From IMG/VR virus record IMGVR_UViG_3300032290_001212, positions 1 to 61,480 of that record: DNA of 61,480 bases. One strand, 5' to 3'. The notes below the pieces were generated by a model that was given only the letters and a program-made list of their open reading frames with translations, had not been told where the DNA came from and searched no databases. The DNA is from a virus (taxonomy: Duplodnaviria; Caudoviricetes). Every line of letters starts with the position of its first letter. Within the stretch, counting starts at the first letter, position 1. The position numbers were made by a program, and so were the translations under genes. Below are positions 22,715 to 41,296 of this stretch, piece by piece.

Positions 22715-22912
22715 TTAGTTCAGGTCAATAAGTTCTTGTTGGCCGCCATTAAGAACGATCTGTGGCAGTCGAGCAACCTTGCCCTTAGAAGCTGACAAAC
22801 GAATATCCACTCGGTCATACGGTTGCAAACGCATCATTGCTACAAACGTGGGATCAAGCAACTGCTTTACCCAAGCCTCAATGAAGGCTGGAACGGGCTG
22901 TTCCTCGGCCAT
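22715..22912 (-). CDS. Hypothetical protein
   Basis: 65 aa, translationally coupled to the upstream gene. Confidence 0.55.
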   Translation of the reverse strand: MAEEQPVPAFIEAWVKQLLDPTFVAMMRLQPYDRVDIRLSASKGKVARLPQIVLNGGQQELIDLN

Positions 22913-24006
22913 CAGTCGTCTAATTGAACTGTGCCGTAATAGTCAACATCAAAATAGTCAGTCATAATGTCGCTGTTATCACGGTTGTACGCATTCACGA
23001 TGGAATCAACCTTGTCGTAAACGGCTTTTGATTCACCCGTCAAACGACCATAATCATCTCTAGTTTTTGGCAAACCTGAAACCCGTACACGGACAGCGTT
23101 AGTACCACGATTATCGCTCTTAACGCTGAACTTCAAGCCTTGTGGCAATTCACCGTTAGCAACAGCGTCTTTTAGATCGCGGCGAACATCTATGGCAACT
23201 TGTTTTACTGGTCGATAACCCTGATACTTAGGACCCTTGAAGCCACTACGAGAATCAAAAGTTGGTCCCGGAGTACCTGCCTTTGGTGCTACTGGTTCAT
23301 CTCGCTCAGAAACAGCATCAGCGATATCAGCTGCTTTAGCACCTAACGCCTGATCACGCTTGGCTTCATAAGCCAACTGTTCCTTCATCTTTGGGCTATC
23401 AAAACCTGTGCCTTCTTGTTCAGGCTTTTCGGCTACTTTCCCTTGCATTCGTGCTTTTAGTTCTGCTTTTATGGCGCGAGCAACAGGACCCTTGTATGAA
23501 GCTAGATTACTCAACGCATAAGCAACAACAGATTTACCTGAATCCGCACCGTACATCTCATTGATATCGCTCATGCGACTCATAGCATCAAGATAAGGTT
23601 TTGCGCCAAAAGGAATGTCCTTGCCTTGCGCTCGAAGATCACGCCGAATCATGTTTGCCAAGATTTCTATGTTTCCGCTCTTGATTTTTTTGGCTGTTTC
23701 AGGGTCAATGTCGGCTGCATCTGCTTTACGTTGTTTTATTTTTTCGTCTGCTTGTTTTGCTCCTCTTGCAGCATCACCCTGACCTTTCCATCGCATATTG
23801 GCTGCGTAGCGGCCTGCTTCTGAACGGCTAGAAAACTTCGCTTTCTCAACACCTTCAAGAATGATCGTGCGAGCATAACCAGTCACATCCCGGATATCAC
23901 CAGCATCATCAACCGCTTTCACAACAAGATCCCAATGATCTTGTGGTACATCAACGCATACACTCTTGCGAAGACCGTCTAAAAATGCTTTATCTGCTGG
24001 TTTCAT
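22912..24006 (-). CDS. Tagged polyvalent protein with C-terminal LPD29-like domain
   Basis: Tag EKAKFSSRSEAGRYAANMRW; middle FGAKPYLDAM..YGADS domain; C-term VRRDLK..KFSVKS...NSDIMTDYFDV; likely start 24006. Confidence 0.7.
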   Translation of the reverse strand: MKPADKAFLDGLRKSVCVDVPQDHWDLVVKAVDDAGDIRDVTGYARTIILEGVEKAKFSSRSEAGRYAANMRWKGQGDAARGAKQADEKIKQRKADAADIDPETAKKIKSGNIEILANMIRRDLRAQGKDIPFGAKPYLDAMSRMSDINEMYGADSGKSVVAYALSNLASYKGPVARAIKAELKARMQGKVAEKPEQEGTGFDSPKMKEQLAYEAKRDQALGAKAADIADAVSERDEPVAPKAGTPGPTFDSRSGFKGPKYQGYRPVKQVAIDVRRDLKDAVANGELPQGLKFSVKSDNRGTNAVRVRVSGLPKTRDDYGRLTGESKAVYDKVDSIVNAYNRDNSDIMTDYFDVDYYGTVQLDD

Positions 24007-24052
24007 AACGTTTGATACTACTTTCCTGTTGAGATCTCTATGGTGACTACGG

Positions 24053-25048
24053 TTATGCCGACTTTGGTTCAATGCCCATCACCGAAGTGAAAGCATTAGC
24101 CTCAGTCAACACCTGTTTGATCGGCATGTTGATCACTCGAACCTTGATCGGTGTTCCACCAAGTTTTCCATCCTTCGCATCCAAACCAACCAAAGCAGCC
24201 CAACGATGGTGACCGTCAATCACATAACCATCTGAGGAAACAAAGATTGAGTTCTCCTGCAACTTGACCGCTTTCTGTCCTTCTGGACTCATCATAAAAG
24301 CCAAGTTCGCGCCCTTCAATTCGCTTTGAGAAGCCTTCAATTGGGCCGCTGGAACAGAACCCTCACGGGTTTCAATGCCCTTCTCTGCAAGGTGCTTAAC
24401 GAACGCATCGCCAACATTGACTTCCCCGGCTTCGTCAACAGGGAACTTGTCAGGGTTATCAACAGGTGAACCTTTCTTTGGTTTACCAGCGAGTTGCGGC
24501 ATCTTGTCACGCGGGATAGGTTGCCCATCCTCGCCCTTAAGCGAAGACCCACAAAACAGGTTCGTTCCCGGAACAGAAACCTGACACAAGTTCAACTTGA
24601 CCTTCTCACCCTTCTTCTTCGCCTCTTGAGCGAAAGCATGAATGTCAGCGATCAAAGTATTGACCTCATCAACAGACCCCATAGACACCGTTTTGCCTTG
24701 ACGTAACGCATCCAAAGCTTCCTTAGGGTCATCTGTGACCACATCAGCCTTAACAGGTGCGCCACCCTGAGGTTGACCGGGTTGGGCTTTCTGATGGTTC
24801 TTCCAACGCTGTTGAGCAGCATAACGACCTGCCTCAGACCTGTTACCACCGAAACCTTGAGCCTTCTGAATCGCATCCACAAGCACTCGACCAGCAGTAC
24901 CGCCAGTTGCCTGAATACTGCCTGCCTTCTCAACCTCGGCCACAATCTGATCCCACACAGAATCAGGCAACTGCCTCAACTCTGTAGCGCGAACCATATC
25001 TAGCACGGCTTTCTGAGCCGGGCTTAAACCACCACAATTACAACTCAT
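24053..25048 (-). CDS. Tagged protein with ParB/Srx-like domain
   Basis: Tag QKAQGFGGNRSEAGRYAAQQRW; IPRDKMPQL, LKASQSE, DGYVIDGHHRWAA; likely start MSCNC at 25048. Confidence 0.75.
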   Translation of the reverse strand: MSCNCGGLSPAQKAVLDMVRATELRQLPDSVWDQIVAEVEKAGSIQATGGTAGRVLVDAIQKAQGFGGNRSEAGRYAAQQRWKNHQKAQPGQPQGGAPVKADVVTDDPKEALDALRQGKTVSMGSVDEVNTLIADIHAFAQEAKKKGEKVKLNLCQVSVPGTNLFCGSSLKGEDGQPIPRDKMPQLAGKPKKGSPVDNPDKFPVDEAGEVNVGDAFVKHLAEKGIETREGSVPAAQLKASQSELKGANLAFMMSPEGQKAVKLQENSIFVSSDGYVIDGHHRWAALVGLDAKDGKLGGTPIKVRVINMPIKQVLTEANAFTSVMGIEPKSA

Positions 25049-25265
25049 TAGGGAGATACTTCGCTTTCCACTCGGCAAAGAAACTAGGAATCCATGCTCC
25101 AGCAGTTTCGTTCACGTAACCATATTTTGTCGGCTCTTTAGCAACCTCGATCCAACCAGCCTCTTCCTCAGGGGTCGTAACGACACCATCAGTCTTGGCT
25201 GCATCCAAAGACACCCCACCGAGGATCATCCGGGCAAACGCATGTTGCTTCTCTGTATCAATCAT
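25038..25265 (-). CDS. Small hypothetical protein (antitoxin/immunity candidate)
   Basis: 75 aa, coupled to the end of the zeta-toxin-like domain gene. Confidence 0.55.
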   Translation of the reverse strand: MIDTEKQHAFARMILGGVSLDAAKTDGVVTTPEEEAGWIEVAKEPTKYGYVNETAGAWIPSFFAEWKAKYLPNEL

Positions 25266-27415
25266 TTCTGTTCTCCATAGTTCACCTTATCCAAAAAGGC
25301 TTGGTACAGGGCTGGTTCAATGATAGACGATTTACCTGCCACAGATTCAAACATTTTGACAGCGCGAGGCCGCCCATTCGCATCTTGACTGTTCGTGTCA
25401 TAAACGGCTATGGAGTCAAACTTGCCGCTCTTCACATACTCCGGGAAGTTCCGTGAAACACCCTTATGGTTAGAAATCAAGGTTTCATCTTTAACCTCTC
25501 GACCAGTTTTCAAAGAACGCGACTTGGCTCGCTGTAAAGCGTTCTCAATTGATGCCGAATAAAACACACCAACAACCTTGTCTGCCCCAGCCTCACGATA
25601 CGAGTCAACCTTGCGTAACTGTTTAGCCACACCGTTATTGGCAACACCGTCAATAACCACGTTCCTACCTGAAGCGATAGCCGTACCAGTCACCATTTGT
25701 GCGATCATCGCTGACTCCTCATGGACAAAGTTCGCCGCTTCCTTCCAAACATCATTTTTGCCACCGCCATCAATCGCATCATCCTGAGCTGCCGACGTGC
25801 GCGACTCTTCAGTACCAATCAACTGTTGGTATTCAGGCAACAAAACCTTTATCTCATCTGGGTTCACCAAAACAGCCTCATATTCGCCCTTAGAAGGATC
25901 AGCGGCAGGTGTTTTGATATCCGGGGAAGGCGTAGATTTACCTGAAGCAGCACCGCCACCCTTCACATAAACGGTCAACTGACCCGGAGCGGCCTTCGGT
26001 ATCTGAGGAGCAACGAAAATCGCTGTCGTGTCCTGCCACAACTGTTGACGCTCCGGGGTCAAATACTTGTAAACGATCTCCGAAACCTTCGTTCCATCCT
26101 TGGTTTCAAAATCGTCAATACCAACACCATTAGCCTTCAACTCTTTAGCCAAACCATCAAAGTCACAATGCGACGCGAGAGAAGGAGCCAACATTGCGGC
26201 TCGCTTACCACCAGTCGTCACAGGCGGTCGAGCGTCACCCAACAGGTTAGAAATCTCGTTACGAATACGCTCATTTCTCCATCGCATCTCAGCTGCATAT
26301 CTCCCGGCAGCTGAACGATCACCACCGAAGGACTTGCCCTTCTTGAAATCAGCCAGTCGTGCGGCCACGCGCATCTCAGCCTTCAACGCATCAACGCTCT
26401 TACCCATTGTTTTAGCCTGAATTAGACGGCCACCCTGCAAAAACACATCACCCTTAGGCGTAGAAATAGCCTGAATATCGCCACCGCGCTGTCGAGAAAT
26501 ACGTTTCGCATCAGCCTCACGACGTTCAGCTTCGACCTGATGAAGCGGTTTCGGGTTCGTGTATTCCTCGCTGAAGTAATACTTTAGGCGTTCAATCAAG
26601 CCCGGAGTTTTCTCCCCGCGTTGCTCTCGATCAAACTTACGCGATCGAGCCGCATTCAGTCGAGCTGCAAAATTAAGCCCGGCATAGCCCATAGCGGAAG
26701 CAACACGGTCTGAAACCCTTTGCTGTGCTGGACTATTCTGCCATCTCATATTTGCGGCGTAACGACCAGCTGCACTTCTATCCCCGGCGAACGATGCTTT
26801 TGCAATCGCATCAGGCATAGACATGTCAATACGTGCGGCAGCTCCACCGATAGAAAAGCCTTGAATCTTGCCTGCTTTAACCAGTTCCCAAGCCCAAGGC
26901 TTCCATTGAACGCCCAAAAAGACAGTTCCAGCCGGGTACTCGACCTGTTTGCTGTTCGCATCCTTGGTCATACCAATCGTTACTGGCACAGGGAACGACA
27001 TGGCTTCCACCCACTCACCAGCCACAATGTCCTTATTGTGTTGCAAGCGGATGCCACGATCCCCAGATTTCACATACTCCCAAAGGGATTTCTGAAGTTC
27101 ATCAGCATCAGTCCACTCCCCGTGCGCGTCATAACGATTAGGGATATACCAAGGGCCGAGCGTGAAACGGTGTTCGCTGTCAGCCTTATGGAGAAGCTCC
27201 ACATTCGCACTGGAGAGCTGCTCAGGGGCCGCCTTGACCAATTCATCATCGAAAGGCTCTTCGACCGTTTCAGAGGCTGCATCATCTTCCCCGGCTTCGT
27301 CAACATAGGCGACCATCGCCTCATCAATGGCTTCCTGAACCTGAACTGGCAAATCAACCCAATTGATCAGGCCGTTCATCCAGTCTTCGACAAGCTTCAT
27401 TTCATCCATTCGCAT
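25262..27415 (-). CDS. XkdF-like prohead protease fused via two tags to a zeta-toxin-like P-loop kinase
   Basis: DAHGEW...LQH...WELVKAGKIQGFSIGG (XkdF); tags at 26741-26800 and 26279-26337; GGAASGKST, VNPDEIK.LLPEY, HEES, NVVIDG. Confidence 0.8.
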   Translation of the reverse strand: MRMDEMKLVEDWMNGLINWVDLPVQVQEAIDEAMVAYVDEAGEDDAASETVEEPFDDELVKAAPEQLSSANVELLHKADSEHRFTLGPWYIPNRYDAHGEWTDADELQKSLWEYVKSGDRGIRLQHNKDIVAGEWVEAMSFPVPVTIGMTKDANSKQVEYPAGTVFLGVQWKPWAWELVKAGKIQGFSIGGAAARIDMSMPDAIAKASFAGDRSAAGRYAANMRWQNSPAQQRVSDRVASAMGYAGLNFAARLNAARSRKFDREQRGEKTPGLIERLKYYFSEEYTNPKPLHQVEAERREADAKRISRQRGGDIQAISTPKGDVFLQGGRLIQAKTMGKSVDALKAEMRVAARLADFKKGKSFGGDRSAAGRYAAEMRWRNERIRNEISNLLGDARPPVTTGGKRAAMLAPSLASHCDFDGLAKELKANGVGIDDFETKDGTKVSEIVYKYLTPERQQLWQDTTAIFVAPQIPKAAPGQLTVYVKGGGAASGKSTPSPDIKTPAADPSKGEYEAVLVNPDEIKVLLPEYQQLIGTEESRTSAAQDDAIDGGGKNDVWKEAANFVHEESAMIAQMVTGTAIASGRNVVIDGVANNGVAKQLRKVDSYREAGADKVVGVFYSASIENALQRAKSRSLKTGREVKDETLISNHKGVSRNFPEYVKSGKFDSIAVYDTNSQDANGRPRAVKMFESVAGKSSIIEPALYQAFLDKVNYGEQK

Positions 27416-28211
27416 TTTCCTTTTCGTGTCGAGCTGCCGCTAAATCAGCCATCTTGTAAACCAACGCCATTTTCGCCACGTTTGGGTCAGTCGGGTTATT
27501 TTGCCCTAATTCAAGCCCTTTGATGCCCGTAGCGGCGTTCCATGCTCGCGTAACATCAATTGCTTCCTTATGGCTCATACCAATCCGAATCACATTCGCT
27601 TTCGTAGAACTGCCTTTGAACTCTCTAGCCAGATATGCGGCCCAACGGTGATGCCCGTCAATCACATAATTGTCATCAGAAATGACGATGGCAGACTTAT
27701 CAAAATCGGTTGAAAACTTGTCTTCCCCGGATTCCATCCTTCGCATGATCTGCCCAGAGTTTGAACCAGAAATCTCAGACTGAATTGGCTTCAACGAGGA
27801 GGCGGTAACGGTTTCACGCGTAACTTTCACGCCACGCGACTCAAGCAAATCAATGAACTCCTGTCGGCGGCTAGACGGGATCTGAGGCATATCACGGCGA
27901 GCAATACCCAAATTGTCGTCACTCATCAAGCGTGTACCAATAATCGAAAGCTTTGTGATATCTGGGTTGTCGGTTCGATCAGCCATCGCATCCAAAACCT
28001 TTGCAAAATCCTCTGTAGTAACCCGGCTTCTCCTGCCTGCAACCGTGCGATCAACTAGCCCCTTGATATCAGAACTAGAACCAGCCGAAGTATGCCCCTG
28101 CCATCTCTGCAAAGCCGCATAACGACCTGCCTCAGAACGTGAAGCAAAAGACCGTTTCAATACCTCAAGACGAATCTGTGCTGGTGTTGAAAGACGGTTG
28201 GCCACCGCCAA
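27402..28211 (-). CDS. Tagged protein with ParB/Srx-like domain (paralog of 24053..25048)
   Basis: Tag KRSFASRSEAGRYAALQRW; IARRDMPQI, LKPIQSE, DNYVIDGHHRWAA. Confidence 0.75.
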   Translation of the reverse strand: MAVANRLSTPAQIRLEVLKRSFASRSEAGRYAALQRWQGHTSAGSSSDIKGLVDRTVAGRRSRVTTEDFAKVLDAMADRTDNPDITKLSIIGTRLMSDDNLGIARRDMPQIPSSRRQEFIDLLESRGVKVTRETVTASSLKPIQSEISGSNSGQIMRRMESGEDKFSTDFDKSAIVISDDNYVIDGHHRWAAYLAREFKGSSTKANVIRIGMSHKEAIDVTRAWNAATGIKGLELGQNNPTDPNVAKMALVYKMADLAAARHEKENANG

Positions 28212-28562: not shown

Positions 28563-30527
28563 TCAGTCCTTTACCTGTGTTGAAAGTGCCAACAACCCTA
28601 GCGTGAACGCACGGTGTTCAGGGTCAAGGTTCTTTGAACCAAAGAACACGCCCTCAATGCCCATCGTGAAAATCTCAAAAGAACTGTCTCGACTTTGGTT
28701 GTAAACCTTTCCAGCATAAGGCTCACCCCACTTATCTTTCGCCGCCATCTCGTTAGCACGATAACCACGATTACCAGTAATTTTGCTCAACTTTTGAAGT
28801 GGCTCTCCAGCCCGGCGACTTGTCCAATACGCATACTGCATCTGTTTCAGCCATTGATTACCGTTCTCAGCTGCATGACCCATTTCATGCAAAGCGACAC
28901 TACGCCAACTTTGTGATGGCTCGTCACCTAGTTTTACGGCTTCAAGTTTAAGTTTTGTGGTCACCTCAACACCAAGATTTGTCCGAATCTTCTGGGCGTG
29001 AGCGCGACCGTTCTTGATATCCAACTCAATGTTCGTGGCCATTTTCGTTCCAGCAACCTTTGCAAAAGGCGACTCCGAACCCTCCCAAAGTTTTCCGGGA
29101 AGCAACTGAACAGCCTCATCAATCAACCCCTGAAACTTCCTGCCTCTCGGTGTTTCATCAGCCTTCCTAGAAGTGGTCACCTTGCCATAACCGCCAACAC
29201 GCTGAGTTTTACCCTGCAAAGCAACAGGAACTTGCCCGGCTTTACCGAACTCGACACCAACATCAGCCAAAGCTTTCTTCACGATGGCTTGACGTTGAGC
29301 AGTTGTTATCACCAAAGGTTTTAGTTCAGCCCTAGCAGCATCCAACGCATTCCTATCCTTCTCAGCCTGCTTAGGGTCAAGCAATTTAGGGGCCTCAGAC
29401 CGCAGAGTTTCACCTAATTTCCCATCAATTCTTTGTCGCATCAAAGCCAAAAATGCCTGATTCTTTTGCTCTCTCGTATAAGGAGGATTATCTGTTAAGT
29501 CTTGGGGTGCATGAAGCGCACTATCTCCAAAAGCCCTCATGTTCTCCTCGTATTTCACCCCTGTGCCGTAAGCAGCAACTGAGGTTTTCCGAGAAACTAA
29601 ATCAAGTAATGCCTCGTCTGACATGTTTGATAGTTCAGCAACATCAATTTCCCCCTTACGAACTCGCTCCCCTAAGTTTCTCTGACCTTGTAAAACCGCG
29701 TATTGAACGGTATCAACGGCAGCCATAGCTCGTAGTTCGGACCCCGTATATTCCGCATTTGGTCGCCCCATCACAGCCATCGCCTCATCCGATGTAGGTG
29801 CTTCTACAACATCGTAAAGAGCTCTGTTATACACATCCGCTTTTTCTTGTGCTTGCCTTCGTTTTTCATCAAGATCGTTAATTCTGTTTTTAATTTCGGC
29901 AATTTTTGGATCTAACTCGTTCTGAAGTTTTGCTAACTCTGCAGCAACCACTTGATCAATCAACTTCCCAGCAGCCTCAACCTGATCAGCCAAACGCATC
30001 TCTCTGTCTGTTGGTGGATATTGAGTATTAACAACCGACTCAACTACACCTGTGTTTTCGCCCGGAATACCTGTTCCAGCATCACGTAAGGCAGATATCG
30101 CATCACCCTTAAACGCTGACTCCAAAATCTTTTTAGCCTCAACAAGCCTTGGATCAACAGGTGGTGTGCCATCATCCTCAGGCTTCTTGTCCTTCTTCTG
30201 GTGGTTCTTCCAGCGTTGTTGGGCCGCGTACCTGCCTGCGGCACTACGGTCACCAGCAAACGAAGCCTTAATCAAATCAACAAGCGACATTTTCTTAAAC
30301 GCATCACCAAACAACAGATCATAAATTGGCTGTGGGGTGGCTTGCGCCCAAGGATATGTCCTCAACTTGGCAAGGCGTTCCGATCGAGCAGGCTCAACCA
30401 AAGGAACATCAAACTGGCGTTCAAAGTCCTCAACCGTGACAACTCCGGGGAAATCAAACGCATTGGCTTTAACCCAATCCGAATTATCCATGTTGTCATC
30501 AACCATCAAAACATTTTTAGGTATCAC
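28563..30527 (-). CDS. Tagged protein with C-terminal zincin metallopeptidase (MPTase-like)
   Basis: Tag IKASFAGDRSAAGRYAAQQRW; ALHEMGHAAE...YAGKVY...FEIFTMGIE. Confidence 0.75.
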   Translation of the reverse strand: MIPKNVLMVDDNMDNSDWVKANAFDFPGVVTVEDFERQFDVPLVEPARSERLAKLRTYPWAQATPQPIYDLLFGDAFKKMSLVDLIKASFAGDRSAAGRYAAQQRWKNHQKKDKKPEDDGTPPVDPRLVEAKKILESAFKGDAISALRDAGTGIPGENTGVVESVVNTQYPPTDREMRLADQVEAAGKLIDQVVAAELAKLQNELDPKIAEIKNRINDLDEKRRQAQEKADVYNRALYDVVEAPTSDEAMAVMGRPNAEYTGSELRAMAAVDTVQYAVLQGQRNLGERVRKGEIDVAELSNMSDEALLDLVSRKTSVAAYGTGVKYEENMRAFGDSALHAPQDLTDNPPYTREQKNQAFLALMRQRIDGKLGETLRSEAPKLLDPKQAEKDRNALDAARAELKPLVITTAQRQAIVKKALADVGVEFGKAGQVPVALQGKTQRVGGYGKVTTSRKADETPRGRKFQGLIDEAVQLLPGKLWEGSESPFAKVAGTKMATNIELDIKNGRAHAQKIRTNLGVEVTTKLKLEAVKLGDEPSQSWRSVALHEMGHAAENGNQWLKQMQYAYWTSRRAGEPLQKLSKITGNRGYRANEMAAKDKWGEPYAGKVYNQSRDSSFEIFTMGIEGVFFGSKNLDPEHRAFTLGLLALSTQVKD

Positions 30528-33500
30528 GGTGCTTCTCCAGTTTCATCCTCGTAAGCCCACTCTGTAACTTGGCTTTCGTAATCTCTTCTTTCATCACTAT
30601 TGAGGAATCCAGACTTGTATCCAGCGCGGAATGAGCCTTGAACGGGGCGACCAATAACAACCACCTCGGCTTCCTCCCAGCATCCAACACCTGTATATGG
30701 GATTGACAGAATATCTTTAGTTTTGATACGTGCCTTCACAATTGTGCCAAACGGCTGACCGTGAGAAGATTTAGCAAAAAAAGCTGCATCATCAAGTCTT
30801 GTAGCCCACGAAGAAAGTGGTCGCATCAGAATCTCTGCCTTTTCAGGTGGCTGTAAAGGAGAAATAAACTCTCGGTTAGTTCCCCTATCCGGGTCGCTTG
30901 GTTTCCGCTTCATTCCTCGGAAAAGCGTAATTTCTTTGATCCCTTTAGCATCAAAATACTGTTGTGTAGCAGCATATTGGGCAAGCAAAAAAGACGATAA
31001 CACCTTTGTTCGTGCATCTGAAATTGTTGAAGAAGGCTTATATGTATCTTTATTGGAATACTCTGCCGAACCACCATCCCAATCTCCAGCATCCGTTGTT
31101 CCACTATTCCAACTCAAAGCATCAACCTTGAAAACCTTTTGAGCGGCATCTTGAATCGCTAGAGACAATTCGTGAGCATCGTTCGCTGTGGTGGCCCAAG
31201 CATCAACTAAAGGCTTCACGGCCGCTTGTTTTAGTGCTATTTGACCTTCCGGGGTGTCAGCATCAAAAATCTGACCTTCAGCAGCCATCTGATCCCAATG
31301 CTTTGAGGCAAAATCAATGCGCGATCTCATAATGGTTGAACCATCTATCGCTGGATCTAATTTAGGGTTATTTGATTCCCTTGCAACATAATCCTCTTTA
31401 GACGCATCAATCACAGTTCCATCTTTTGCCAAAATAAACCTTTTAACTGTTCCATCCAAGATTTCCTTAATATGACGCGAAGCAGTTGGCTTTATTACGC
31501 TGTGATTGTTGTCGTCACCACCGAAACCATCAATAACATCCATAATTTCTGTTGTTGAAACATCGGTCATATTCGTTGCAAGATTCTTACAAACCAAAGC
31601 CTTCCATTTTCCCGGCTCTGTGGACTGGTGATACCCAGAACTACCATCAGGGTGTTCAGCAAGCATCTCTTCAAGCAAAGCCTTAGGGTGAATCGAGCCA
31701 TCCGCGCCCAACTTGTAAACACCTTTGCCCACGAACCCGGCAACCTTACGTTGACCCTGCCATCGCATGTTCGCTGCATAGCGACCAGCAGCTGACCTGT
31801 CACCGCCGAAAGAAGCCTTGATCATGCCAACCAACAACTGTTGCCTGAACGCATCCACATCAAACGGCTGACCCCGGAAAGCAAACAAGAAAACAGGGTG
31901 ATCAGGCGGCCAATTCAAAAGGTTGTCCACAATACGATCCTGCTTCAAAACTTCAAGAGCAGCACCAACAGCAACAAAACCACCACGATTAGCAAGATCT
32001 GATTTCAACTGGTTTGGGACCATCGCATTAACTCTTGTCATCGTGAACCACGCGGTGAAGTTTTCGGCAAACCGCTCAACAATGTTCGTGTTTGAGTATT
32101 CAGTTCCTCTTGGCGAAAAACCGCTTTCAAGAAATGTGCTAAACCTTTTCTCGTCATCCGTAGCAGATGAAGGATCTTTTTGTGCTTTTTCTTGAATACT
32201 TTGTGACCTGTACTGTTGAAACCCTTTATCAGTAACACCCAACGAGTAGTCAATCCAATGACCCATTTCGTGAACCGTAAAACCGTAAGCAATACGTGCG
32301 GCAACCGAATCATTACGACCAAGGGAACTACTTTGAATCGCATCGGCAGCCACCTGTACGACTGTTGAGGGAATGTAGGGTCTGCCATCCTTATATGACT
32401 TATCAATCATTTGTGCCACCCTCATAAACAAAGCCACATCATTACGTTGGCTATCAAAATAGCCTCCAGTTCCATCACCAGAGTTTTGGTAGTAGTCGCC
32501 AATAGTCACTTCAGGCAATAAACCGTTCTTGGCATCAGGTATTAACTTCGTAGTATCAACTTGATCAAGAACATCATCCAAAGCCTGCAACATAGCGAAA
32601 TACTCAGGTGACTCTGTATCTAATCTTGGTGACCCATCGCTATTTTGAGCAAAAACATTCAGCTGTACGCCTCGACCAGCAAAATAGGCTGTCTGCATCG
32701 TCACATTTTCACCAAACCGTACCTTTGCTTCAGCCGGGGTCAAAATCTTTGGAAAACCTAGACTGTCAAAACCGCTTTTTAGTATTGGGCCTTCCTGAAA
32801 CTTCTCAGCCATTCTGCGTTCCCTAACAGCAGGCTTAGTCTCACCCTTCTTGTGATTCTTCCAGCGTTGCTGGGCCGCATAACGACCAGCAGCTGAACGA
32901 TCACCGCCAAACGAAGCCTTTTCTAACGCATCCCTCTCCAACCGCTCCAACCAAGATTTCCACTCAATACCAGCCCATGAATTATCGCCAGTCTGATAAA
33001 CCTCTTTGCCAGTTACAGCCGACATGAAACCAGCCCCGGAAACTGTGTAATCATCGGCTTTCATATCAACACCGCCATTACGCTTTTTAGCCTCGCTATA
33101 TAAAAACGATCCAATGCCCTTCCTTCGATAATCTTTAGCGACATAGATTTTTGCTATAAAATTGGCATCAAACTTCAAGGCACCGACAACCTTGCCTGTT
33201 GCATTATCGGTCGCCCAAACAGTTCCACTATCTTTGCCATCTGATTCAAAGTCAACTGTTACTTGATCAAGAAGGCCATCCTTCGCATTACCCTTCCATC
33301 TTTGTTCTGCTGCGTAACGACCAGCAGCTGAACGATCACCGCCAAACGAAGCCTTTTCAATATCGGTATCTTCCGCAAAAGCAGCCCCAGCAGAAGTCAA
33401 AACCGTTGAATGATAAATCGTTTCAGAACCAATGTTGTAGCGTTTTCCCAATCGCATCAGAGCCGTAGCCACACCCTTGCGACGTTCATTGGCGACCACA

Positions 33501-33994
33501 TCAACCTGACCGATAGCGATTTTGCCTTTCTGCCCATACTTTCCGTCATGGTCTGTTTCAGCCCACAAATACCCAATTTGCTTTTTACCGCGTTTAGCCT
33601 CAACTTCAATGAACTGGCTACCCTTGACACCCTTAGCGGTAACATCAACCCACATCTCTTTACCTTCATCATCCAAAACGGTAAATGTTGCTCGTCGAGT
33701 AAAAGTGCCATCTTTGTATGGCCCAAAAGTTTCGTTTCCCCGGATTTCAACGATTTTCAAATCACCGGGGGCAGTCGCATCCGCTTTCTCTTTCGGTGTA
33801 TGGTTTTTCCAGCGTTGATTAGCCGCGTACCGTGCAGCTTCCGTACGTGAAGCGAACTGTGCTTTCTCAAGTGAATACAGCACCTTCAACTGTGCGGTCG
33901 CCTTCTTACGATCCTTATGACGGCCAACAACCTTCTGGTCACGGTCACGAACAACCAACACCTGATCGCCCTCGGTCTTCAAATGCCAAGGCAT
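30524..33994 (-). CDS. Four-module polyvalent protein: tag-GNAT, tag-GNAT, tag-metallopeptidase, tag-ADP-ribosyltransferase
   Basis: V..RRKGVATAL and V..YRRKGIGS acetyl-CoA motifs; HEMGH...EYS.TN..ERFAE.F; LFRG...PLSSW...EEAEVVV (R-S-E). Confidence 0.8.
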   Translation of the reverse strand: MPWHLKTEGDQVLVVRDRDQKVVGRHKDRKKATAQLKVLYSLEKAQFASRTEAARYAANQRWKNHTPKEKADATAPGDLKIVEIRGNETFGPYKDGTFTRRATFTVLDDEGKEMWVDVTAKGVKGSQFIEVEAKRGKKQIGYLWAETDHDGKYGQKGKIAIGQVDVVANERRKGVATALMRLGKRYNIGSETIYHSTVLTSAGAAFAEDTDIEKASFGGDRSAAGRYAAEQRWKGNAKDGLLDQVTVDFESDGKDSGTVWATDNATGKVVGALKFDANFIAKIYVAKDYRRKGIGSFLYSEAKKRNGGVDMKADDYTVSGAGFMSAVTGKEVYQTGDNSWAGIEWKSWLERLERDALEKASFGGDRSAAGRYAAQQRWKNHKKGETKPAVRERRMAEKFQEGPILKSGFDSLGFPKILTPAEAKVRFGENVTMQTAYFAGRGVQLNVFAQNSDGSPRLDTESPEYFAMLQALDDVLDQVDTTKLIPDAKNGLLPEVTIGDYYQNSGDGTGGYFDSQRNDVALFMRVAQMIDKSYKDGRPYIPSTVVQVAADAIQSSSLGRNDSVAARIAYGFTVHEMGHWIDYSLGVTDKGFQQYRSQSIQEKAQKDPSSATDDEKRFSTFLESGFSPRGTEYSNTNIVERFAENFTAWFTMTRVNAMVPNQLKSDLANRGGFVAVGAALEVLKQDRIVDNLLNWPPDHPVFLFAFRGQPFDVDAFRQQLLVGMIKASFGGDRSAAGRYAANMRWQGQRKVAGFVGKGVYKLGADGSIHPKALLEEMLAEHPDGSSGYHQSTEPGKWKALVCKNLATNMTDVSTTEIMDVIDGFGGDDNNHSVIKPTASRHIKEILDGTVKRFILAKDGTVIDASKEDYVARESNNPKLDPAIDGSTIMRSRIDFASKHWDQMAAEGQIFDADTPEGQIALKQAAVKPLVDAWATTANDAHELSLAIQDAAQKVFKVDALSWNSGTTDAGDWDGGSAEYSNKDTYKPSSTISDARTKVLSSFLLAQYAATQQYFDAKGIKEITLFRGMKRKPSDPDRGTNREFISPLQPPEKAEILMRPLSSWATRLDDAAFFAKSSHGQPFGTIVKARIKTKDILSIPYTGVGCWEEAEVVVIGRPVQGSFRAGYKSGFLNSDERRDYESQVTEWAYEDETGEAP

Positions 33995-35004
33995 CAGTCC
34001 ACCTCATCCTCAGCGGTCAACGCATCAACCTGATCACCAACACCAACCAAAGCAATCAGATTCAATGTACAACGGCAAGAAGGGTGCGCCGGGGGGCAAA
34101 TCTCACCATTCGTGAACACGCTCGTCACAGGCACACGCGAACCAGCCAAATCCAAACACACAGGACACACATTGACACCACGCCAACCATCAGGCCCAAT
34201 AACCCACTCTTTCTCCGCTGTAGCCAAATCCAAATAACCCTGATCAGCAGCCTGATACCACGACAACACCTGACCGATGTTCTGTGCAGCCAAAATCTCT
34301 GTACGAGCGATATTCAACGCCCTAGCACGAACCAACTGATCCCGGTACTGCAAAGCCAACTCCTGTGCTTGGATCATCGCATTCTCCAAACCAGTAGTGC
34401 GCGACAGTCGAGCCACCTCTTTGTTGTAATAGTTATTCACCGCTGTCTGCCAACGATCATGTAAGCCGATCACACGCGAGATATCTCTTGCAGCTCGCTG
34501 AATACCACCACCACCTGACAAAACCCTTGAAATAGCCCCACGAACAGCCTGAAGGGTGTCTGCCTCAATCTGCTTGATCATCGCTCCAGCGCGTTGCTCT
34601 GCCCACCTGATAGCGCGGGGATCCTTGTTATCAAATCGCATAACCCCAGCCACCCCGGAAGGAAGTCGAGTGATAGCGGCCTTAATCTCAGCCATCACCT
34701 GCTCCTCGGTAGCAAGACTTACCTCACCAAGCGACCGACGTAAATCCTCAATTGCTTGAGCAGCAAAGGTTTCCTGAAACAAACGAAGATCGTTACCGCG
34801 CCCCTGACGAACCAAAGCATCACGAACACGATCAACAGTCGCGCCCATCCCGCTCATCGCATTCTGGTAAAGCTGCTGCAAAGCCTCAATATCGGCCAAC
34901 ATCGCCGGGTCTATCGTGTCATCAAAAGCCTTAAATACGGCTTCCACGCCATCATCGCATAACTCATGGTCATGTCGAGCTATCCGCTTCTGTACGAACG
35001 GCAC
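33994..35004 (-). CDS. MuF / SPP1 gp7-like head morphogenesis protein
   Basis: RA..IARTE, KEW, CPVC, PPAHPSCRC; directly after portal. Confidence 0.88.
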   Translation of the reverse strand: MPFVQKRIARHDHELCDDGVEAVFKAFDDTIDPAMLADIEALQQLYQNAMSGMGATVDRVRDALVRQGRGNDLRLFQETFAAQAIEDLRRSLGEVSLATEEQVMAEIKAAITRLPSGVAGVMRFDNKDPRAIRWAEQRAGAMIKQIEADTLQAVRGAISRVLSGGGGIQRAARDISRVIGLHDRWQTAVNNYYNKEVARLSRTTGLENAMIQAQELALQYRDQLVRARALNIARTEILAAQNIGQVLSWYQAADQGYLDLATAEKEWVIGPDGWRGVNVCPVCLDLAGSRVPVTSVFTNGEICPPAHPSCRCTLNLIALVGVGDQVDALTAEDEVD

Positions 35005-35006
35005 GA

Positions 35007-36476
35007 CTATTCCTTAGCGTCAGCGGTTGTTGCTCCTGTGGCTTCGGCTTGGCCGCCTTGCCCAACCTGATCAAACACATTCACTTCAGGTGCTGGGGCT
35101 GGGGCTTGTCCGGGTGCTGGAGGCATACCCATACCTTGATCTGGTGGCATACCCATTCCCGGTTGAGGAACACCCTCTTCTTCGCTTCGCTTCGGCAAGT
35201 TAGCCAAACCGCGCAAGAAGTTGTCCAACTCAATGTCAGGTTGCATAGCACCTGCGGCAGCCATCTTGGAGATGAAGTCGCCAAGAACACCAAGGTCAAC
35301 ATGGGTGATTTCGCCCGGCTTGATCTTTGGCATACGAGTCGTGTCCATGCCGTTCAGTTTCATCAAACGAGGAATCGCATGTTGGTTGAAAGTGTCAGCA
35401 ATAGAGTTGGCGATCTGCTGGATAGCCGACGTGAACAAGTCAATCTTGGAAGCACCCAAAGCAAAAGAGCCAACTTTTTCATGGCCCAAAAGGATGAAGT
35501 CAGCCAAAATAATCATCGAAATACGTTGGTCATAGCGAGCAATGATCGCATCAGTATTAAAGTTGCGTGTTCCACCAGAACTCAACAAAGTCAACTTGTA
35601 CTGTTCACGCCCTTGCTCGTCATAGGCAAGAGGGAACAAAATGCCCTCGTTCTCGTTGCGCTTAATGCCCCGGATCAGATCCTGCATAGCGTTACGAGCT
35701 GAAACCTCAGCTGCGGTGGCGTTAGAAGACAACATTGACGGTGGCACATAAGCAACAGGCAAACCAGCCAAGTCACGCTCAATACCTACAGCCTCAATTT
35801 CCTCAATAGTCTTCTTGAAGAACCAAGGGCGATACGCATTACGGAGAATCGAGCGACCTTCCGGGTTGTTGCGCGGAGTAGCGGTGCGGAACAGCAAAGC
35901 CTTCTCAATAGGGATAGAAACTACGCCCTTTGGAACTGAAGGATCTGACTGTCGCATCGCCCGGATAGAGCCGTTCTCATCAAACTCCCAATCCCACAAT
36001 GTTTCCTGTGAGCGGAGAGCGATCTTGCGCCAACCAACCTTGCTATCGCTGTGTTTGGACTTGCGGCGACTGTCCTTCTGATCTGGACCCTGACGCTTCT
36101 TATAGACAATCTCACAATAAGCAAAACCGAACGGCAAAAACGACAGAATCTGCGACAACATGGCAGGCCACGACTCGCTCATATCATCCATGCACTCTTT
36201 GATGAAGTCAGCCTGAACCTGATCCTTGCGTTTCACCGAATCAGTCTTCTTTTCCGTGTAAGGCTCAACATCCCACTCAATAGCCAAAATCAAACGCTCG
36301 ATCGCATAGAGCATCGCCCCAACAACAGGGTCATTGTCCGACATTTCGCGCCATACGCGCATACCTTGAACACCACGTAAGTTCGTGATGAAGTCGTCAA
36401 TAACGAACCCTGAGGTGCGTTGAAGCCCGGAAGAACCAATTTCCTGAAAATCGGGTTGAGCTGCCATTTTCGCCAT
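35007..36476 (-). CDS. Portal protein (DUF935/Mu gp29-like)
   Basis: EM..NDP, FGF...EIVYK, NPEGRSILR.AY, GIERDLAGLP, GSFAL. Confidence 0.9.
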   Translation of the reverse strand: MAKMAAQPDFQEIGSSGLQRTSGFVIDDFITNLRGVQGMRVWREMSDNDPVVGAMLYAIERLILAIEWDVEPYTEKKTDSVKRKDQVQADFIKECMDDMSESWPAMLSQILSFLPFGFAYCEIVYKKRQGPDQKDSRRKSKHSDSKVGWRKIALRSQETLWDWEFDENGSIRAMRQSDPSVPKGVVSIPIEKALLFRTATPRNNPEGRSILRNAYRPWFFKKTIEEIEAVGIERDLAGLPVAYVPPSMLSSNATAAEVSARNAMQDLIRGIKRNENEGILFPLAYDEQGREQYKLTLLSSGGTRNFNTDAIIARYDQRISMIILADFILLGHEKVGSFALGASKIDLFTSAIQQIANSIADTFNQHAIPRLMKLNGMDTTRMPKIKPGEITHVDLGVLGDFISKMAAAGAMQPDIELDNFLRGLANLPKRSEEEGVPQPGMGMPPDQGMGMPPAPGQAPAPAPEVNVFDQVGQGGQAEATGATTADAKE

Positions 36477-36677: not shown

Positions 36678-36730
36678 ACCCCCACCATATAGGCAGGGGT
36701 ATGCGCTCTCGGACAGAAACAGGGGGTTAG

Positions 36731-37926: not shown

Positions 37927-38373
37927 CTAGATGGCTTGTGCGTTGATGAACTTGATCATCGCATCAGCGAAGATGAAGGTTTTTTTGCTTTCCTGCTCAA
38001 CTGCGAGGATCTTGTTTTTCCCACGCGAACGAACGCCTGCGAAAGCGTAGGTTTTGCCACCGCTCACGAACTTCGTGCCGATTGGGGCTGTGAGTTGAAC
38101 CATGTCCTGAAGGGAAACTCCGAGGTAAGCCGTGTAACCGAAACGGTTGTAGTAGATCACATCAGGGCTTGCCAAGTTGATTCCATCCTCGGAGATCATT
38201 AGGGCTTCAGCAACGATTTTGAACTCGTAGTTGTCGCCATACTTTGAGGCTCGCTTGGTGACCTTCAGGTTGTGCTTGGCAAAAATGTCCGCAATCGCCG
38301 CGTCAATTTCGCGAGATACCTCGGTGCATTTTTCTTTGCTGACCATGTTTTCGGTCATTGTTGATGTTGCCAT
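37927..38373 (-). CDS. Hypothetical early protein
   Basis: First gene after promoter P1; G.KF...GKTY.F.G. Confidence 0.6.
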   Translation of the reverse strand: MATSTMTENMVSKEKCTEVSREIDAAIADIFAKHNLKVTKRASKYGDNYEFKIVAEALMISEDGINLASPDVIYYNRFGYTAYLGVSLQDMVQLTAPIGTKFVSGGKTYAFAGVRSRGKNKILAVEQESKKTFIFADAMIKFINAQAI

Positions 38374-38414
38374 TTTTTGCTCCTGTTCTGTCAAGCTCCC
38401 TGCCTGACAAGATC

Positions 38415-38444
38415 AGTATAAGGGGCAGAGTAGCCCCTTGTCAA
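38415..38444 (-). promoter_or_regulatory. Sigma70/SigA-type promoter P1 with palindromic spacer
   Basis: TTGACA-18-TATACT; AAGGGGC-N6-GCCCCTT inverted repeat across the spacer. Confidence 0.85.
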
Positions 38445-38462
38445 GTACCTGAAATGGCTAAA

Positions 38463-38936
38463 TCAGGATTTCTTTTTGTTCTCATTCCGGGCAGAAATCG
38501 CCGCTGCCTTCTTACGTGCGTCAGCCTTAGAACTAGCCCCCCAAGCCTGCAAACTCAACAACAACCGTGTCGGCTCACCATTGGCATCACGCTCTGGTCC
38601 CGGCATATTGCCCATCCGAGCAAGGAACGAAGCCCTACGAGGATTATCCCCACGCTTCACAGGTGGCTTCAAAGTACCGCCAGTTTCACGCTTATATGAG
38701 GCTCGACCCTTCGCATTCAGGCCGCCCTTAGGGTTCTTGCCCTCTTTAGTCTGCCAAGCAGGGCTTTCAGCCTTTTCAAGCGACTCAATAGCCTCAACAA
38801 GACCCTTCTTTTTGCGTTTCTTCTTGCGGCCACTTGTAGTCACATTTCCCATAATTGTGTCCACATGCACAGCAGACGACGTAGGGCTTTCTTTAGCCAA
38901 TGCCACACGCATCCGAACACGGTTGCGATTATTCAT
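38463..38936 (-). CDS. Basic conserved phage protein (DUF6321-like)
   Basis: AWQTKEGKNPKGGLNAKGRASY...RRASFLARM. Confidence 0.75.
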   Translation of the reverse strand: MNNRNRVRMRVALAKESPTSSAVHVDTIMGNVTTSGRKKKRKKKGLVEAIESLEKAESPAWQTKEGKNPKGGLNAKGRASYKRETGGTLKPPVKRGDNPRRASFLARMGNMPGPERDANGEPTRLLLSLQAWGASSKADARKKAAAISARNENKKKS

Positions 38937-41296
38937 TAAGACCAAGCCACCACCGGGTCATAGTTCCACTGGTTTTCTTTCGCTTTTGCTTTCAAGTTCG
39001 CTTGGAACTTGGCAACAACTCGACCCTCTAAACCTTCCTCATATTCCTGCCCATCCTCATCAGCAACCGATTGAATCGCCTGTTGCTCCCAACCATTACG
39101 GGTCATCTTTTCAATGACCACATCAGTTGTTGAAGTTGAATGAATTGCAACACGATAAAGAGGCTTGCCCGGATGGTCAATTGGCGGCTCATAGCCATTT
39201 TCTTGATCCAAACGCGATATCAACCCAATTTCGTCATTAACAATTCTTGCCATATCTTCTTCTGTTTCCGCTCTTGAAGCCCCTCGAATTACTGATTCAT
39301 TAGGACTCCATTTAGGTTCAACTGATAGACCTACATGGGTGGCAGGAGAACCATCGCTATTTTTTTGAATTGCGGTCGGCAGGTAAAACTCGGCTTTATG
39401 AGAAGGCAAATCAATTGTGTAATAGCCTTCTTTTCCGGGAACGGCAGTAACCGTTACCTTTCGCTTTGAACTAAGAGTTATGAATCCTTGATCAATTACT
39501 TTTCCAATTGCCGGGGTAATTTTATATTTACCAGTCGCCGACAAACGCTCTTTGGCTTGGGCTGTTTTCTTTCCTTGCCCTTTCCACCGTTGGTTGGCTG
39601 CATAACGAGCTGCTTCAGATCGTGACGCGAATTGTGCCTTTTCTAGTTGCTCATCATAGAGTGCTTCAAAAACCATTTCAGCACCAGCCTGTTGATCAGA
39701 GTCGCGATACATCTGTGCGTAAGCAGTACGAGCCTGATCCTTGAACCGAGGAGCATCAGGGCCTCCTAGCGTAGCTTTATATTCAGCTTGTCTTGCCCTT
39801 TGCATATATTTTGTTGAACTCTTATCCAGCTCGGCAATGATGCCCAAAGCCCTTTGCCTTGAACCTGCTTCCAAAACTTGCCGACCACCATTGACTTTTT
39901 CAATATATGAGATCTGATCTCGGCTTTGAGGCTCGGTAATCCGTGTACCAGCGCGACCCAAAGACTGTATTTGTTCGTCATACTGTTGCAAAATGGCTTC
40001 AGCCCTCATTCGATCCCTAGGGGTAAAATCAATCTTGCTTGCAGCTTCAGAGATCTTCTCTTGCAGAACTTTTGCCCTATCTAGCGAGCCTTTTGGACTA
40101 AACCTTTGAGGAGACTCATAACGACCTTCACGCAAACGGTCTTTAATGCTGTCAATTTCTTTACCGAACTGTATGCCAAAACTCTTCTCGCCCAAAATGT
40201 CTGTGCCAACTTGCTTCAATTCATCAAGGTAACGCTCAACCTTCATTTCGTCTTCCTCATACGAACCTTCGCTGATCGCATCAGAACTAGCGTTTATAGT
40301 TGGGCTTTTCACTTGTCCTACAAGGGTGACGTTTGCGCTTTGAGGTGTTCCAGACAATTGCCCACCAGCCGAAGAAGCTTGCCCTTGGCCTTTCCATCGC
40401 ATGTTCGCTGCATAACGGCCAGCCTCCGAACGACTAGCGAAAGACTTGCCTTTGCTCATGCGCGACTGAAGACCCTTATCAATCGCTTTTTCCTGATCCA
40501 AAACAAAACCCACATCCCTAGAAGCCATCTCAAAAATCATTGTTCGGGTACGGGAAACCATTGTCCGAACCGTGTTCTCCTCTAAAGCATTCGCATAGTT
40601 ACCTGACGCTTTAGCATCTTTCTCAGATTTCCGGGCAAGAGCAGCGAACTTCGTTTTCACCCTCTGCAACGACTTCAAATTGGTTGCTCGATCACCCTCA
40701 TTAGCGTCTAGTTTGCCTAACACATCACGAACCTCTTGCTCTAAAGGAGCAATCGCTGATTCAAGTTCGTCTTTTACTTGGGCGGCGAAAGCAACATCAT
40801 CTTTCGTAGCCAAAGGCGCACCATACTTCTCGTTCAAGCCTTTCCCGGCTTTCATAATCATCGCCTCAGAGAAAGCTTTATCTCGACCCTGTTTGTTTGT
40901 GAAACGGTATTCCAAATATGAGGCTCTGTGCGTTGATTTCGGGGCTTCAGCTTTCGCTTGTTCTTCTTCCATACGTCGCAGATCGCGTCGAGCGAGCGTA
41001 ATAAGCCCTTTTTGCTGTTTCAATTCAGCCTTGGAAGCACCATTGTCACGCATCGCCTCTAACAAACCTTCTTGCTCGTCAATGTGGGCGCGTAACTCGC
41101 TTGCAGCCATTTTCGCTGGGGTCATACCCCGGATACTCAAATCATCAAGAGGAGTTTTACCCTTCTTCCCCTGACCCTTCCACCTCTGATTAGCAGCATA
41201 ACGACCAGCCTCAGACCTTGAAGCGAACTGTGCCTTACGCATCTCCGACTTAATACGAACAACAGTTTGCGCGATCTCTTTCGCCAAATCAGACAT
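38936..41296 (-). CDS. Three-module tagged polyprotein of unknown domains
   Basis: Tags at 41180-41237, 40394-40452, 39584-39643; TATGTT-6nt-ATG leaderless start. Confidence 0.75.
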   Translation of the reverse strand: MSDLAKEIAQTVVRIKSEMRKAQFASRSEAGRYAANQRWKGQGKKGKTPLDDLSIRGMTPAKMAASELRAHIDEQEGLLEAMRDNGASKAELKQQKGLITLARRDLRRMEEEQAKAEAPKSTHRASYLEYRFTNKQGRDKAFSEAMIMKAGKGLNEKYGAPLATKDDVAFAAQVKDELESAIAPLEQEVRDVLGKLDANEGDRATNLKSLQRVKTKFAALARKSEKDAKASGNYANALEENTVRTMVSRTRTMIFEMASRDVGFVLDQEKAIDKGLQSRMSKGKSFASRSEAGRYAANMRWKGQGQASSAGGQLSGTPQSANVTLVGQVKSPTINASSDAISEGSYEEDEMKVERYLDELKQVGTDILGEKSFGIQFGKEIDSIKDRLREGRYESPQRFSPKGSLDRAKVLQEKISEAASKIDFTPRDRMRAEAILQQYDEQIQSLGRAGTRITEPQSRDQISYIEKVNGGRQVLEAGSRQRALGIIAELDKSSTKYMQRARQAEYKATLGGPDAPRFKDQARTAYAQMYRDSDQQAGAEMVFEALYDEQLEKAQFASRSEAARYAANQRWKGQGKKTAQAKERLSATGKYKITPAIGKVIDQGFITLSSKRKVTVTAVPGKEGYYTIDLPSHKAEFYLPTAIQKNSDGSPATHVGLSVEPKWSPNESVIRGASRAETEEDMARIVNDEIGLISRLDQENGYEPPIDHPGKPLYRVAIHSTSTTDVVIEKMTRNGWEQQAIQSVADEDGQEYEEGLEGRVVAKFQANLKAKAKENQWNYDPVVAWS

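Follow-up and report, generated by a model that had tools for sequence, protein, structure and literature searches.

The window (the whole stretch of DNA analysed here, 61,480 bp) is a complete IMG/VR virus record, IMGVR_UViG_3300032290_001212, with direct terminal repeats, from an uncultured phage. A peptide of about 20-22 amino acids (aa), called the tag here, occurs 13 times in seven genes of its head-gene region and stands each time at the head of a protein module. The reading favoured here, with a rough probability of 0.55, is that of a portable cargo cassette. Such a cassette would consist of a Φ-x-K↓A/S site (Φ, hydrophobic residue; ↓, predicted cut), a helix of about 20 aa with a Lys-rich tail, and an enzyme or toxin-like module. 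Cassettes are found singly or strung together, up to four per polypeptide.

The tag and the cassettes that it heads

The full motif of the tag is Φ-x-K-[A/G/R]-x-F-(GGD/AS)-R-[ST]-[EA]-A-[GA]-RYAA-x-x-RW. The peptide is basic and aromatic and has a Lys-rich tail. The core A[AG]RYAA is found exactly 13 times by a six-frame scan of the window; all copies are on the minus strand and all lie within the full motif. Three are in the interval between terL and the portal gene (one gene) and ten in the interval between the MuF gene and the scaffold gene (six genes). The original prediction, made from the letters of the window, had given 13 copies in seven genes between terL and the scaffold gene, and each copy is found within 30 nucleotides of the position that it gave. 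A profile built from the 13 copies and run against the whole 61,480-bp genome returns them at 55.2-70.6 bits (E 5e-16 to 7.6e-21). The next-best match, at 50409-50444, has 12.5 bits (E 0.01).

Over 169 distinct copies, conservation of the core residues R, S, A, RY, AA and RW is 94-100%. The DNA of the 13 window copies has a mean column identity of 63%. At the seven invariant residues with synonymous choices, the same codon is found in 0.33 of copy pairs (0.29 expected from codon usage). Because the codons at invariant residues are near random, selection is concluded to act on the protein sequence of the tag. A DNA-level repeat was considered and rejected on these two figures.

Fifty-seven loci with the tag are found in IMG/VR; including the window, they carry 220 copies (169 distinct). 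A filter-free profile search of 1.84 billion protein cluster representatives gives 406 proteins at E ≤ 1e-3 and 211 at E ≤ 1e-10. The tag is restricted to viral and metagenomic sequence. In 185,579 prokaryote species genomes (one each), 23 pattern matches were found and none was confirmed as a tag. No credible match is found in 50,697 records of cultured phages (tblastn; five rows, all E ≥ 5). No family of Pfam or PHROG covers the tag (Pfam, noise only; PHROG, best E 0.005, three of 125 tags), and PDB sequences give a chance 10-residue match only. No description of the peptide was found in the literature searched, from which supplementary files and subscription journals, where it may be in print, were outside scope; the only text match to 'AGRYAA' is a primer paper.

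Virion, MuF or portal genes accompany the tag genes of the window and those of 51 of the 57 loci. The tag-bearing frames (178) are located after MuF and/or before the scaffold gene (136), or after terL and/or before the portal gene (28); the other 14 have no head gene within the fetched stretch. The two head-module slots together have 164 of the 178 frames. The placement in the head locus made by the original prediction needs correction for six divergent loci, described below, where tag genes are also found elsewhere. Both slots are insertion places reported for cluster AL Arthrobacter phages in passages of PMC5513430.

The cassettes were described on representatives, the 150 best of the 406 cluster proteins matching the tag profile. 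Tags per protein: one in 70, two in 58, three in 16, four in 6. Neighbouring tags are never closer than 92 aa, and behind the last tag a protein continues for a median of 245 aa; a few short tails are probably truncated gene calls. Tag identity is 0.70 where homology is confined to the downstream 100 aa (601 pairs; 324 tag instances), 0.63 where it is confined to the upstream 50 aa (957 pairs) and 0.56 for the remaining pairs; the pairs are not independent. At locus L012 (L numbers designate loci, P numbers cluster representatives), the ParB-like module of the window is found, together with its particular tag variant, behind the second junction of the protease gene, which is the place of the zeta toxin in the window; in the window, the same ParB-like module is a separate gene (24053-25078). 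A tag and the module downstream of it are inherited together, and cassettes shuffle at the tag. At least 92 aa follow each tag, which agrees with the earlier claim that a tag heads each module.

Cargo types identified by Pfam among the 150 representatives are DUF3626 (21), ADPrib_exo_Tox (14), Acetyltransf_1 (11), XkdF (7), Zeta_toxin (5), DRAT (5), HNH (4) and ART (4). DUF3626, the commonest, is matched by none of the 13 modules of the window. Domain calls made in the original prediction are confirmed in part. Matches above Pfam cut-offs: Zeta toxin (1.3e-11), XkdF (2e-11) and the second GNAT module (3.9e-10). Matches below cut-offs: first GNAT module (8.6e-4), ParBc_2 (0.01), LPD29 (0.073) and the zincin-like ATLF (0.023); a ParB-like PHROG match has an E-value of 3.3e-4. 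Four modules match no family, one in gene 25262-27415 and three in gene 38936-41296. Several weak lines point to an ADP-ribosyltransferase (ART) for another module. Its R121/G122, S156 and E203/E205 change little or not at all among 19 homologues (R...S...E-x-E pattern), and two homologues have weak DRAT matches, below the cut-off. Its model has a predicted local distance difference test score (pLDDT) of 62. Foldseek returns no row at E ≤ 1e-3 with this model; the rows are weak and PARP-dominated, the best being a PARP12 catalytic fragment (E 0.022, TM 0.19). A search of the modules against PDB sequences gives nothing below E 0.1.

Cutting site, protease and second tag

Φ-x-K lies upstream of every one of the 13 window copies, and the helix would therefore be retained on the cut product. 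The residue at P1' (P1', first residue after the predicted cut; P1 and P3, first and third residues before it) is A in 10 copies, G in 2 and R in 1. Among the representatives, a loose pattern places Φ-x-K no more than 14 aa from the core at 224 of 232 junctions. The spacing from K to the RS core varies (KASFGGDRS, KAQFASRS, KAMSRS, KQAGGFGGDRS), and for this reason the Φ-x-K site and the helix look like two separate elements.

The scaffold is the classic substrate of the prohead protease, and its breakdown is a textbook task of this enzyme. The scaffold of the window was named via the capsid-adjoining gene of Arthrobacter phages Kovu and Laroye. It has nine [LIVMF]-x-K-[ASN] sites in 238 aa; the mean of shuffled sequences is 0.88, none of 20,000 shuffles reaches nine, and the scaffold ranks first among 132 open frames of at least 100 aa. 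The enrichment is specific to K. In 13 scaffold homologues, observed and expected counts are as follows. P1: K, 89 and 12.9; E, 14 and 24.6; R, 0 and 8.7. P1': A, 61 and 9.9; S, 28 and 3.6; N, 17 and 1.9. P3: L, 41 and 4.1; V, 26 and 4.1. Enrichment in the capsid protein, the portal protein and TerL is less than in the scaffold. The scaffold sites are at conserved alignment positions and share nothing beyond P3-P1', so the protease would not need the helix. In the 11 tag-clade scaffolds available (window, L008, L010, L020, L031, L032, L033, L036, L039, L041, L059), a run of 12-20 Asp/Glu is present with Φ-x-K sites at its flanks. The scaffolds of Kovu and Laroye have no poly-D/E run; an Ala/Glu-rich stretch is found in its place. 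The run may be the acidic counterpart of the basic tags.

The protease domain in gene 25262-27415 matches XkdF (Pfam PF14550) over aa 71-196, with 44.4 bits for a cut-off of 24, and is also matched by PHROG head maturation protease families. An alignment of 18 protease genes has this domain between an invariant L-x-x-K↓[AS] on its upstream side and a tag junction on its downstream side. One Ser and two His columns of the alignment (H59, H87, S149) are invariant in the 18 sequences; they are read here as the probable catalytic site. The tag directly follows the protease in 17 of 17 aligned homologues. An AlphaFold2 model of the protease region with the tag has a mean pLDDT of 48.8, a low confidence for the question of a junction lying in the active site. 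A complex prediction with capsid protein, scaffold and tag has a score of 0.00 and is used neither for nor against any reading.

Kovu lacks the tag. Its scaffold has eight such sites, and L-T-K↓A is found just before the XkdF domain of its fusion protein, gp20 (L001 14023-15156, annotated RNA ligase). This protein consists of an enzyme with two H-x-T/S motifs and a C-terminal XkdF, L-T-K↓A being at the boundary; the enzyme part is, as read here, 2H-phosphoesterase-like. The match of PHROG 'RNA ligase' and 'DNA methyltransferase' families to the protease domain of the window is explained by such fusions of XkdF to enzymes.

A second tag, unrelated to the first, is found behind the same site: Φ-x-K↓[EQD]-S-P-T-S-S-[AQ]-VHVD-[TS]-[IV]-M-G, with a Lys/Arg run after it. 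What comes next is a DUF6321 or DUF5872 module, an ART or the protease. Fifteen distinct contexts are known: the window, ten loci (L005, L006, L011, L014, L025, L034, L036, L037, L050, L057) and four cluster representatives (P0028, P0046, P0077, P0087). Capsid proteins of the tag clade start with M-PQPT[SQ]xQ-VHVD-AILTN, those of the Arthrobacter phages with MPEHIDSLLTN. In 14 of the 15 contexts, K is exactly seven residues before VHVD, that is, in the register of the first post-Met residue of the capsid protein, assuming removal of the initiator Met. A short-query BLAST search with the capsid N-terminus gives second-tag sites for 16 of 21 non-capsid matches, including the 14 best (best E 6e-4, in a set of about 7,600 sequences). 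A cut after the Lys of the second tag would give the cargo an N-terminus in register with the N-terminal arm of the capsid protein itself. This register is the strongest hint of cutting at K and of exposed N-termini as assembly signals.

Cutting at Φ-x-K is well supported by these patterns and is considered probable. The cut after Lys had been proposed in the original prediction; the K-specific scaffold sites, the sites bracketing the XkdF domain and the second tag in the capsid register each speak for it independently.

Model and alternatives

In the cassette model, precursors would enter the procapsid together with the XkdF-type prohead protease, itself tag-bearing. The protease would cut after the Lys of Φ-x-K, at the same site as in the scaffold, separating the modules and removing the leaders. 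All mature modules would begin with the same helix, kept on the product and acting as an address or retention element inside the head; such a role is plausible, its chances being about even. In the preferred version, the helix would dock electrostatically on the poly-acidic scaffold tract during assembly. Breakdown of the scaffold would release the tagged modules, which would move to the packaged DNA and exit with the genome as an anti-host arsenal. A more specific version is advanced tentatively, at somewhat less than even odds: a two-letter capsid address code, in which proteolysis would expose either the RS-x-AGRYAA-x-x-RW helix or the copy of the capsid N-arm, docking interchangeable cargo in the shell or on the DNA.

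Several points weigh against the cassette model. The clade is uncultured, and the case for the model is drawn from sequence. The core of the tag is almost invariant across lineages, which fits a universal ligand (DNA) or a very conserved protease as well as a capsid receptor. The first tag has no likeness to scaffold and capsid profiles (hhalign, probability below 1%); mimicry by this tag of the C-terminal peptide of the scaffold (…LYAAYRAEQR) or of a capsid segment was dropped on this result. Scaffold homologues are related, so their site counts are not independent events, and the controls with other P1 residues answer this objection only in part. The contrast in acidic tracts (11 scaffolds with, two without) is in effect one phylogenetic comparison. 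Cargo modules have 298 Φ-x-K-[AS] sites (214 expected): an avoidance of internal sites is not seen in them, so the motif by itself is not enough to specify cutting. In six loci of divergent lineages (L044, L046, L047, L054, L055, L058; L058 and L041 come from one contig), tag genes are in a third slot, outside the head module. There, one to three genes with lower-scoring tag variants (…EKAMSRSEAG[RK][YFV]AA…) are found between a metallophosphoesterase gene, itself after a tail-fibre-like gene, and phrog_23738/replication-initiator genes, and an amidoligase gene follows at about 5 kb. A role inside the host cell would agree with this arrangement too.

The strongest competitor, judged unlikely, is precisely such a role: the helix would act in the host cell as a DNA-, nucleoid- or host-factor-binding peptide, the protease site being incidental or serving only to free the modules. 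It would account for a core that is near invariant across lineages whose scaffolds differ by up to 51%, as for a universal ligand, for the basic and aromatic composition with a Lys-rich tail, for the neighbourhood of replication genes in the six divergent loci, and for an upstream cut that would leave the tag on the mature module. It does not account for the presence of 164 of 178 tag-bearing frames within two head-module slots, nor for a prohead protease that is always followed by a tag (17 of 17 homologues); the copy of a capsid segment in the second tag points to assembly rather than to a host target. Host-cell and capsid roles do not exclude each other. Slightly less likely again is a tag that is a processing or linker element only, that is, an extended P' recognition or docking site with no function in sorting or retention. 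The constant position behind Φ-x-K, the tag directly behind the protease domain and junctions that are the sole conserved parts of otherwise unrelated proteins all agree with it. Against this stand the scaffold sites, which share nothing past P3-P1', the tags of single-module genes with short leaders, and the second, unrelated tag behind the same site. Furthermore, twenty near-invariant residues far exceed known prohead protease motifs, such as the I/L-x-E of T4 gp21 (passages of PMC12991175).

It is improbable that the HExxH metallopeptidase modules of the tag genes, and not XkdF, cut the junctions. The window has two HEMGH modules, with a weak ATLF match, and processing by zincin domains is proposed for polyvalent proteins in passages of PMC5512222. 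On the other side, K-specific sites fill the scaffold of Kovu (eight) and precede its XkdF domain, no metallopeptidase is found among the products annotated in the 26 kb of the Kovu record listed, and scaffold breakdown is the ordinary work of a prohead protease. Very improbable is the proposal that the conserved stretch is a recombination junction for cassette swapping, like the pre-toxin motifs of polymorphic toxins, and that the peptide has no function. Cassettes are indeed shuffled with breakpoints at the tag; codon identity at the random expectation (0.33 versus 0.29) contradicts this proposal, as does a stretch whose amino acids are conserved and whose DNA (63%) is not.

If true, the cassette model accounts for the loading of a dozen unrelated enzymes, some of them toxin-like, by a mid-sized phage without a dedicated helper for each; new effectors would be recruited by cassette shuffling at a fixed junction. 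It would give the first readable specificity of an XkdF-family prohead protease, Φ-x-K↓A/S/N, a pattern to look for in other phages and in host sensors of protease activity, and a short natural tag that is a candidate for loading chosen proteins into phage capsids. If the address code is also true, any enzyme gaining the 30-residue cassette head would become a packaged and injected effector, a natural and programmable loading of HK97-fold capsids.

Features of the window and comparison with known systems

Table 1. Tags, tag-bearing genes and head genes of the window. Coordinates are those of the window. ↓, predicted cut. scan, six-frame scan; profile, search with the profile of the 13 tags.
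Feature	Coordinates	Strand	Evidence or remark
Tag copy 1, gene 38936-41296 (MRK↓AQFASRSEAGRYAANQRWKGQG)	41156..41251	-	profile 61.2 bits
Tag copy 2, gene 38936-41296	40370..40465	-	profile 55.2 bits
Tag copy 3, gene 38936-41296	39560..39655	-	profile 60.8 bits
Tag copy 1, gene 30524-33994, heads first GNAT-like module	33785..33880	-	scan and profile
Tag copy 2, gene 30524-33994, heads second GNAT module	33272..33367	-	scan and profile
Tag copy 3, gene 30524-33994, heads HEMGH zincin-like module	32837..32932	-	scan and profile
Tag copy 4, gene 30524-33994, heads R-S-ExE ART-like module	31736..31831	-	scan and profile
Tag, gene 28563-30527, heads long module ending in HEMGH motif	30186..30281	-	70.6 bits
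Tag, gene 27402-28211, heads ParB/Srx-like module (DGHHRWAA)	28077..28172	-	scan and profile
Tag directly C-terminal to XkdF protease domain (AIAK↓ASFAGDRS...)	26717..26812	-	scan and profile
Second tag copy, gene 25262-27415, heads zeta-toxin-like kinase module	26255..26350	-	scan and profile
Tag, gene 24053-25078, heads second ParB/Srx-like module	24779..24874	-	scan and profile
Tag, gene 22912-24072, heads module with sub-threshold LPD29 match	23764..23859	-	scan and profile
Gene of three tag and module units, no known family	38936..41296	-	terL-portal slot
Polyprotein-like gene, 1156 aa, four tag and module units	30524..33994	-	start overlaps MuF stop
Single-tag gene, 654 aa	28563..30527	-	
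Single-tag gene, 269 aa	27402..28211	-	
Two-tag gene: leader, XkdF protease, tag, 125-aa module, tag, zeta toxin-like kinase	25262..27415	-	
XkdF (Peptidase_S78_2) prohead protease domain	26828..27205	-	Pfam 2e-11, 44.4 bits; LLHK↓AD before, AIAK↓ASF after
Single-tag gene, 341 aa, leader of about 80 aa	24053..25078	-	
Single-tag gene, 386 aa	22912..24072	-	has a related leader
DUF6321 gene headed by the unrelated second tag (LAK↓ESPTSSAVHVDTIMGN, then Lys/Arg run)	38463..38945	-	
Large terminase, terL	41404..43317	-	matches terL of Kovu and Laroye; upstream border of first tag slot
Portal protein, Mu type	35007..36476	-	Pfam PF06074, 7.8e-34
MuF-like head protein, separate ORF	33994..35004	-	Pfam PF04233, 1.9e-9
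Scaffold protein	21330..22124	-	nine Φ-x-K-[ASN] sites and poly-D/E run; putative protease substrate
Major capsid protein	19947..20897	-	phrog_1005; N-terminus PQPTQNQVHVDAILTN copied by the unrelated second tag

The head genes are nearly all on the minus strand. Their order is terS, terL, a 786-aa gene, three small genes, portal, MuF, six further genes, a 102-aa open reading frame (ORF), scaffold, a 130-aa protein and the major capsid protein. The identity of the neighbouring genes given in the original prediction is upheld by Pfam (portal, MuF, XkdF, Zeta_toxin), by phrog_1005 (capsid) and via Kovu and Laroye (terL, scaffold). MuF has 336 aa and its own stop codon, which the ATG of the following gene overlaps. 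Among cultured phages, Arthrobacter phages Kovu and Laroye are nearest (portal identity 52-54%); they have the same backbone without the tag. The capsid protein is of the lambda gpE type (PF03864 on two of the 120 homologues listed). Its homologues form 5,993 clusters (90% identity) at E ≤ 1e-10, the 120 listed being 83-97% identical. With this number of clusters, the clade is very common in metagenomes, and the arsenal may for this reason matter ecologically.

Other observations are as follows. The 102-aa ORF (22182-22490, minus strand) has a hydrophobic N-terminal stretch and is located between the last tag gene and the scaffold gene; it is present in L012 and L059; neither Kovu nor Laroye has a detected homologue. 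A weak tag-like stretch, RSQAGRLAAQRRF, in ORF 49554-50711 (minus strand) is probably due to chance; it is not conserved in four homologues. This ORF is called amidoligase-like from PHROG amidoligase matches on its L058 homologue. In L050 (positions 1-4690 of an 8.6-kb contig), homologues of the three-tag gene are split, on converging strands, and adjoin terL; this is either a real inversion or an assembly artefact. One source labels a contig of about 60 kb as a Verrucomicrobia metagenome-assembled genome, which is not evidence of the host.

Among the closest parallels to the proposed use of the tag is the capsid targeting sequence (CTS) of T4 (IPI-III, Alt; cutting by gp21). In both cases, a short peptide beside a site with a hydrophobic P3 and a charged P1 marks proteins that are, or would be, loaded in the prohead and later injected (T4 internal proteins, passages of PMC9024508; gp21 motif I/L-x-E, passages of PMC12991175). 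The CTS is upstream of the cut and is removed, whereas the helix of the window is downstream of the site in 13 of 13 copies and would be kept. P1 is Glu in T4 and Lys here; the protease is of the gp21 type in T4 and XkdF/S78_2 here. The tag is twice as long as the CTS and is repeated in polyproteins, up to four per protein.

In the giant phages phiKZ and SPN3US, many head-internal proteins are likewise cut by the prohead protease at a short motif (PMC7411985 and PMC10052503). The genome described here differs in its size, 61 kb, and in its lambda-gpE-type capsid protein. To our knowledge, no long conserved tag is shared by the propeptides of giant phages. Encapsulin cargo-loading peptides are short peptides that address unrelated enzymes to the inside of an HK97-fold shell; they are terminal, not tied to proteolysis, and have another consensus. 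The likeness lies in a short peptide carried by unrelated enzymes, tag-shell binding being putative here.

With P1 Dar, the likeness is in the N-terminal 30 residues of DarB, which suffice for the packaging of a large anti-restriction enzyme, and of a reporter, in the capsid (passages of PMC9024508). Unlike the tag, this signal belongs to a single protein, needs helpers (Hdf, DarA, DdrA/B, Ulx) and, in these passages, has no family-wide repeat; it has no sequence likeness to the tag. MuF polymorphic toxins (Jamet et al. 2017, PMC5576092) have toxin domains linked to the MuF head protein of phages; in this class an N-terminal MuF domain and a C-terminal toxin domain form one protein. Here, genes in the neighbourhood of MuF encode the toxin-like modules, which bear the tag instead of a fusion to MuF; as MuF is a separate ORF, the tag system is not a MuF-fusion toxin.

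The modules themselves resemble polyvalent proteins (Iyer et al. 2017, PMC5512222), described in passages of that paper as unrelated effector domains (GNAT, ART, ParB-like, zincin, LPD) in one polypeptide, adjoining MuF, portal and virion genes, with co-delivery with DNA and processing proposed. Two to 15 unrelated effector domains per polypeptide characterize this class, and the window has four modules in gene 30524-33994, three in gene 38936-41296 and the protease with two in gene 25262-27415; the genomic link to virion, MuF or portal genes is found as well, in the window and in the 51 loci given above. The processing proposed in PMC5512222 is autoprocessing by zincins, and the assemblin-like peptidases there are C-terminal; its passages on cleavage, linkers, repeats and motifs contain no shared inter-domain peptide. 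The tag would thus differ from known signals in being a peptide kept downstream of the cut, present at every module boundary, part of a shuffling cassette, preceded by Lys at P1 and accompanied by a partner that copies the capsid N-arm.

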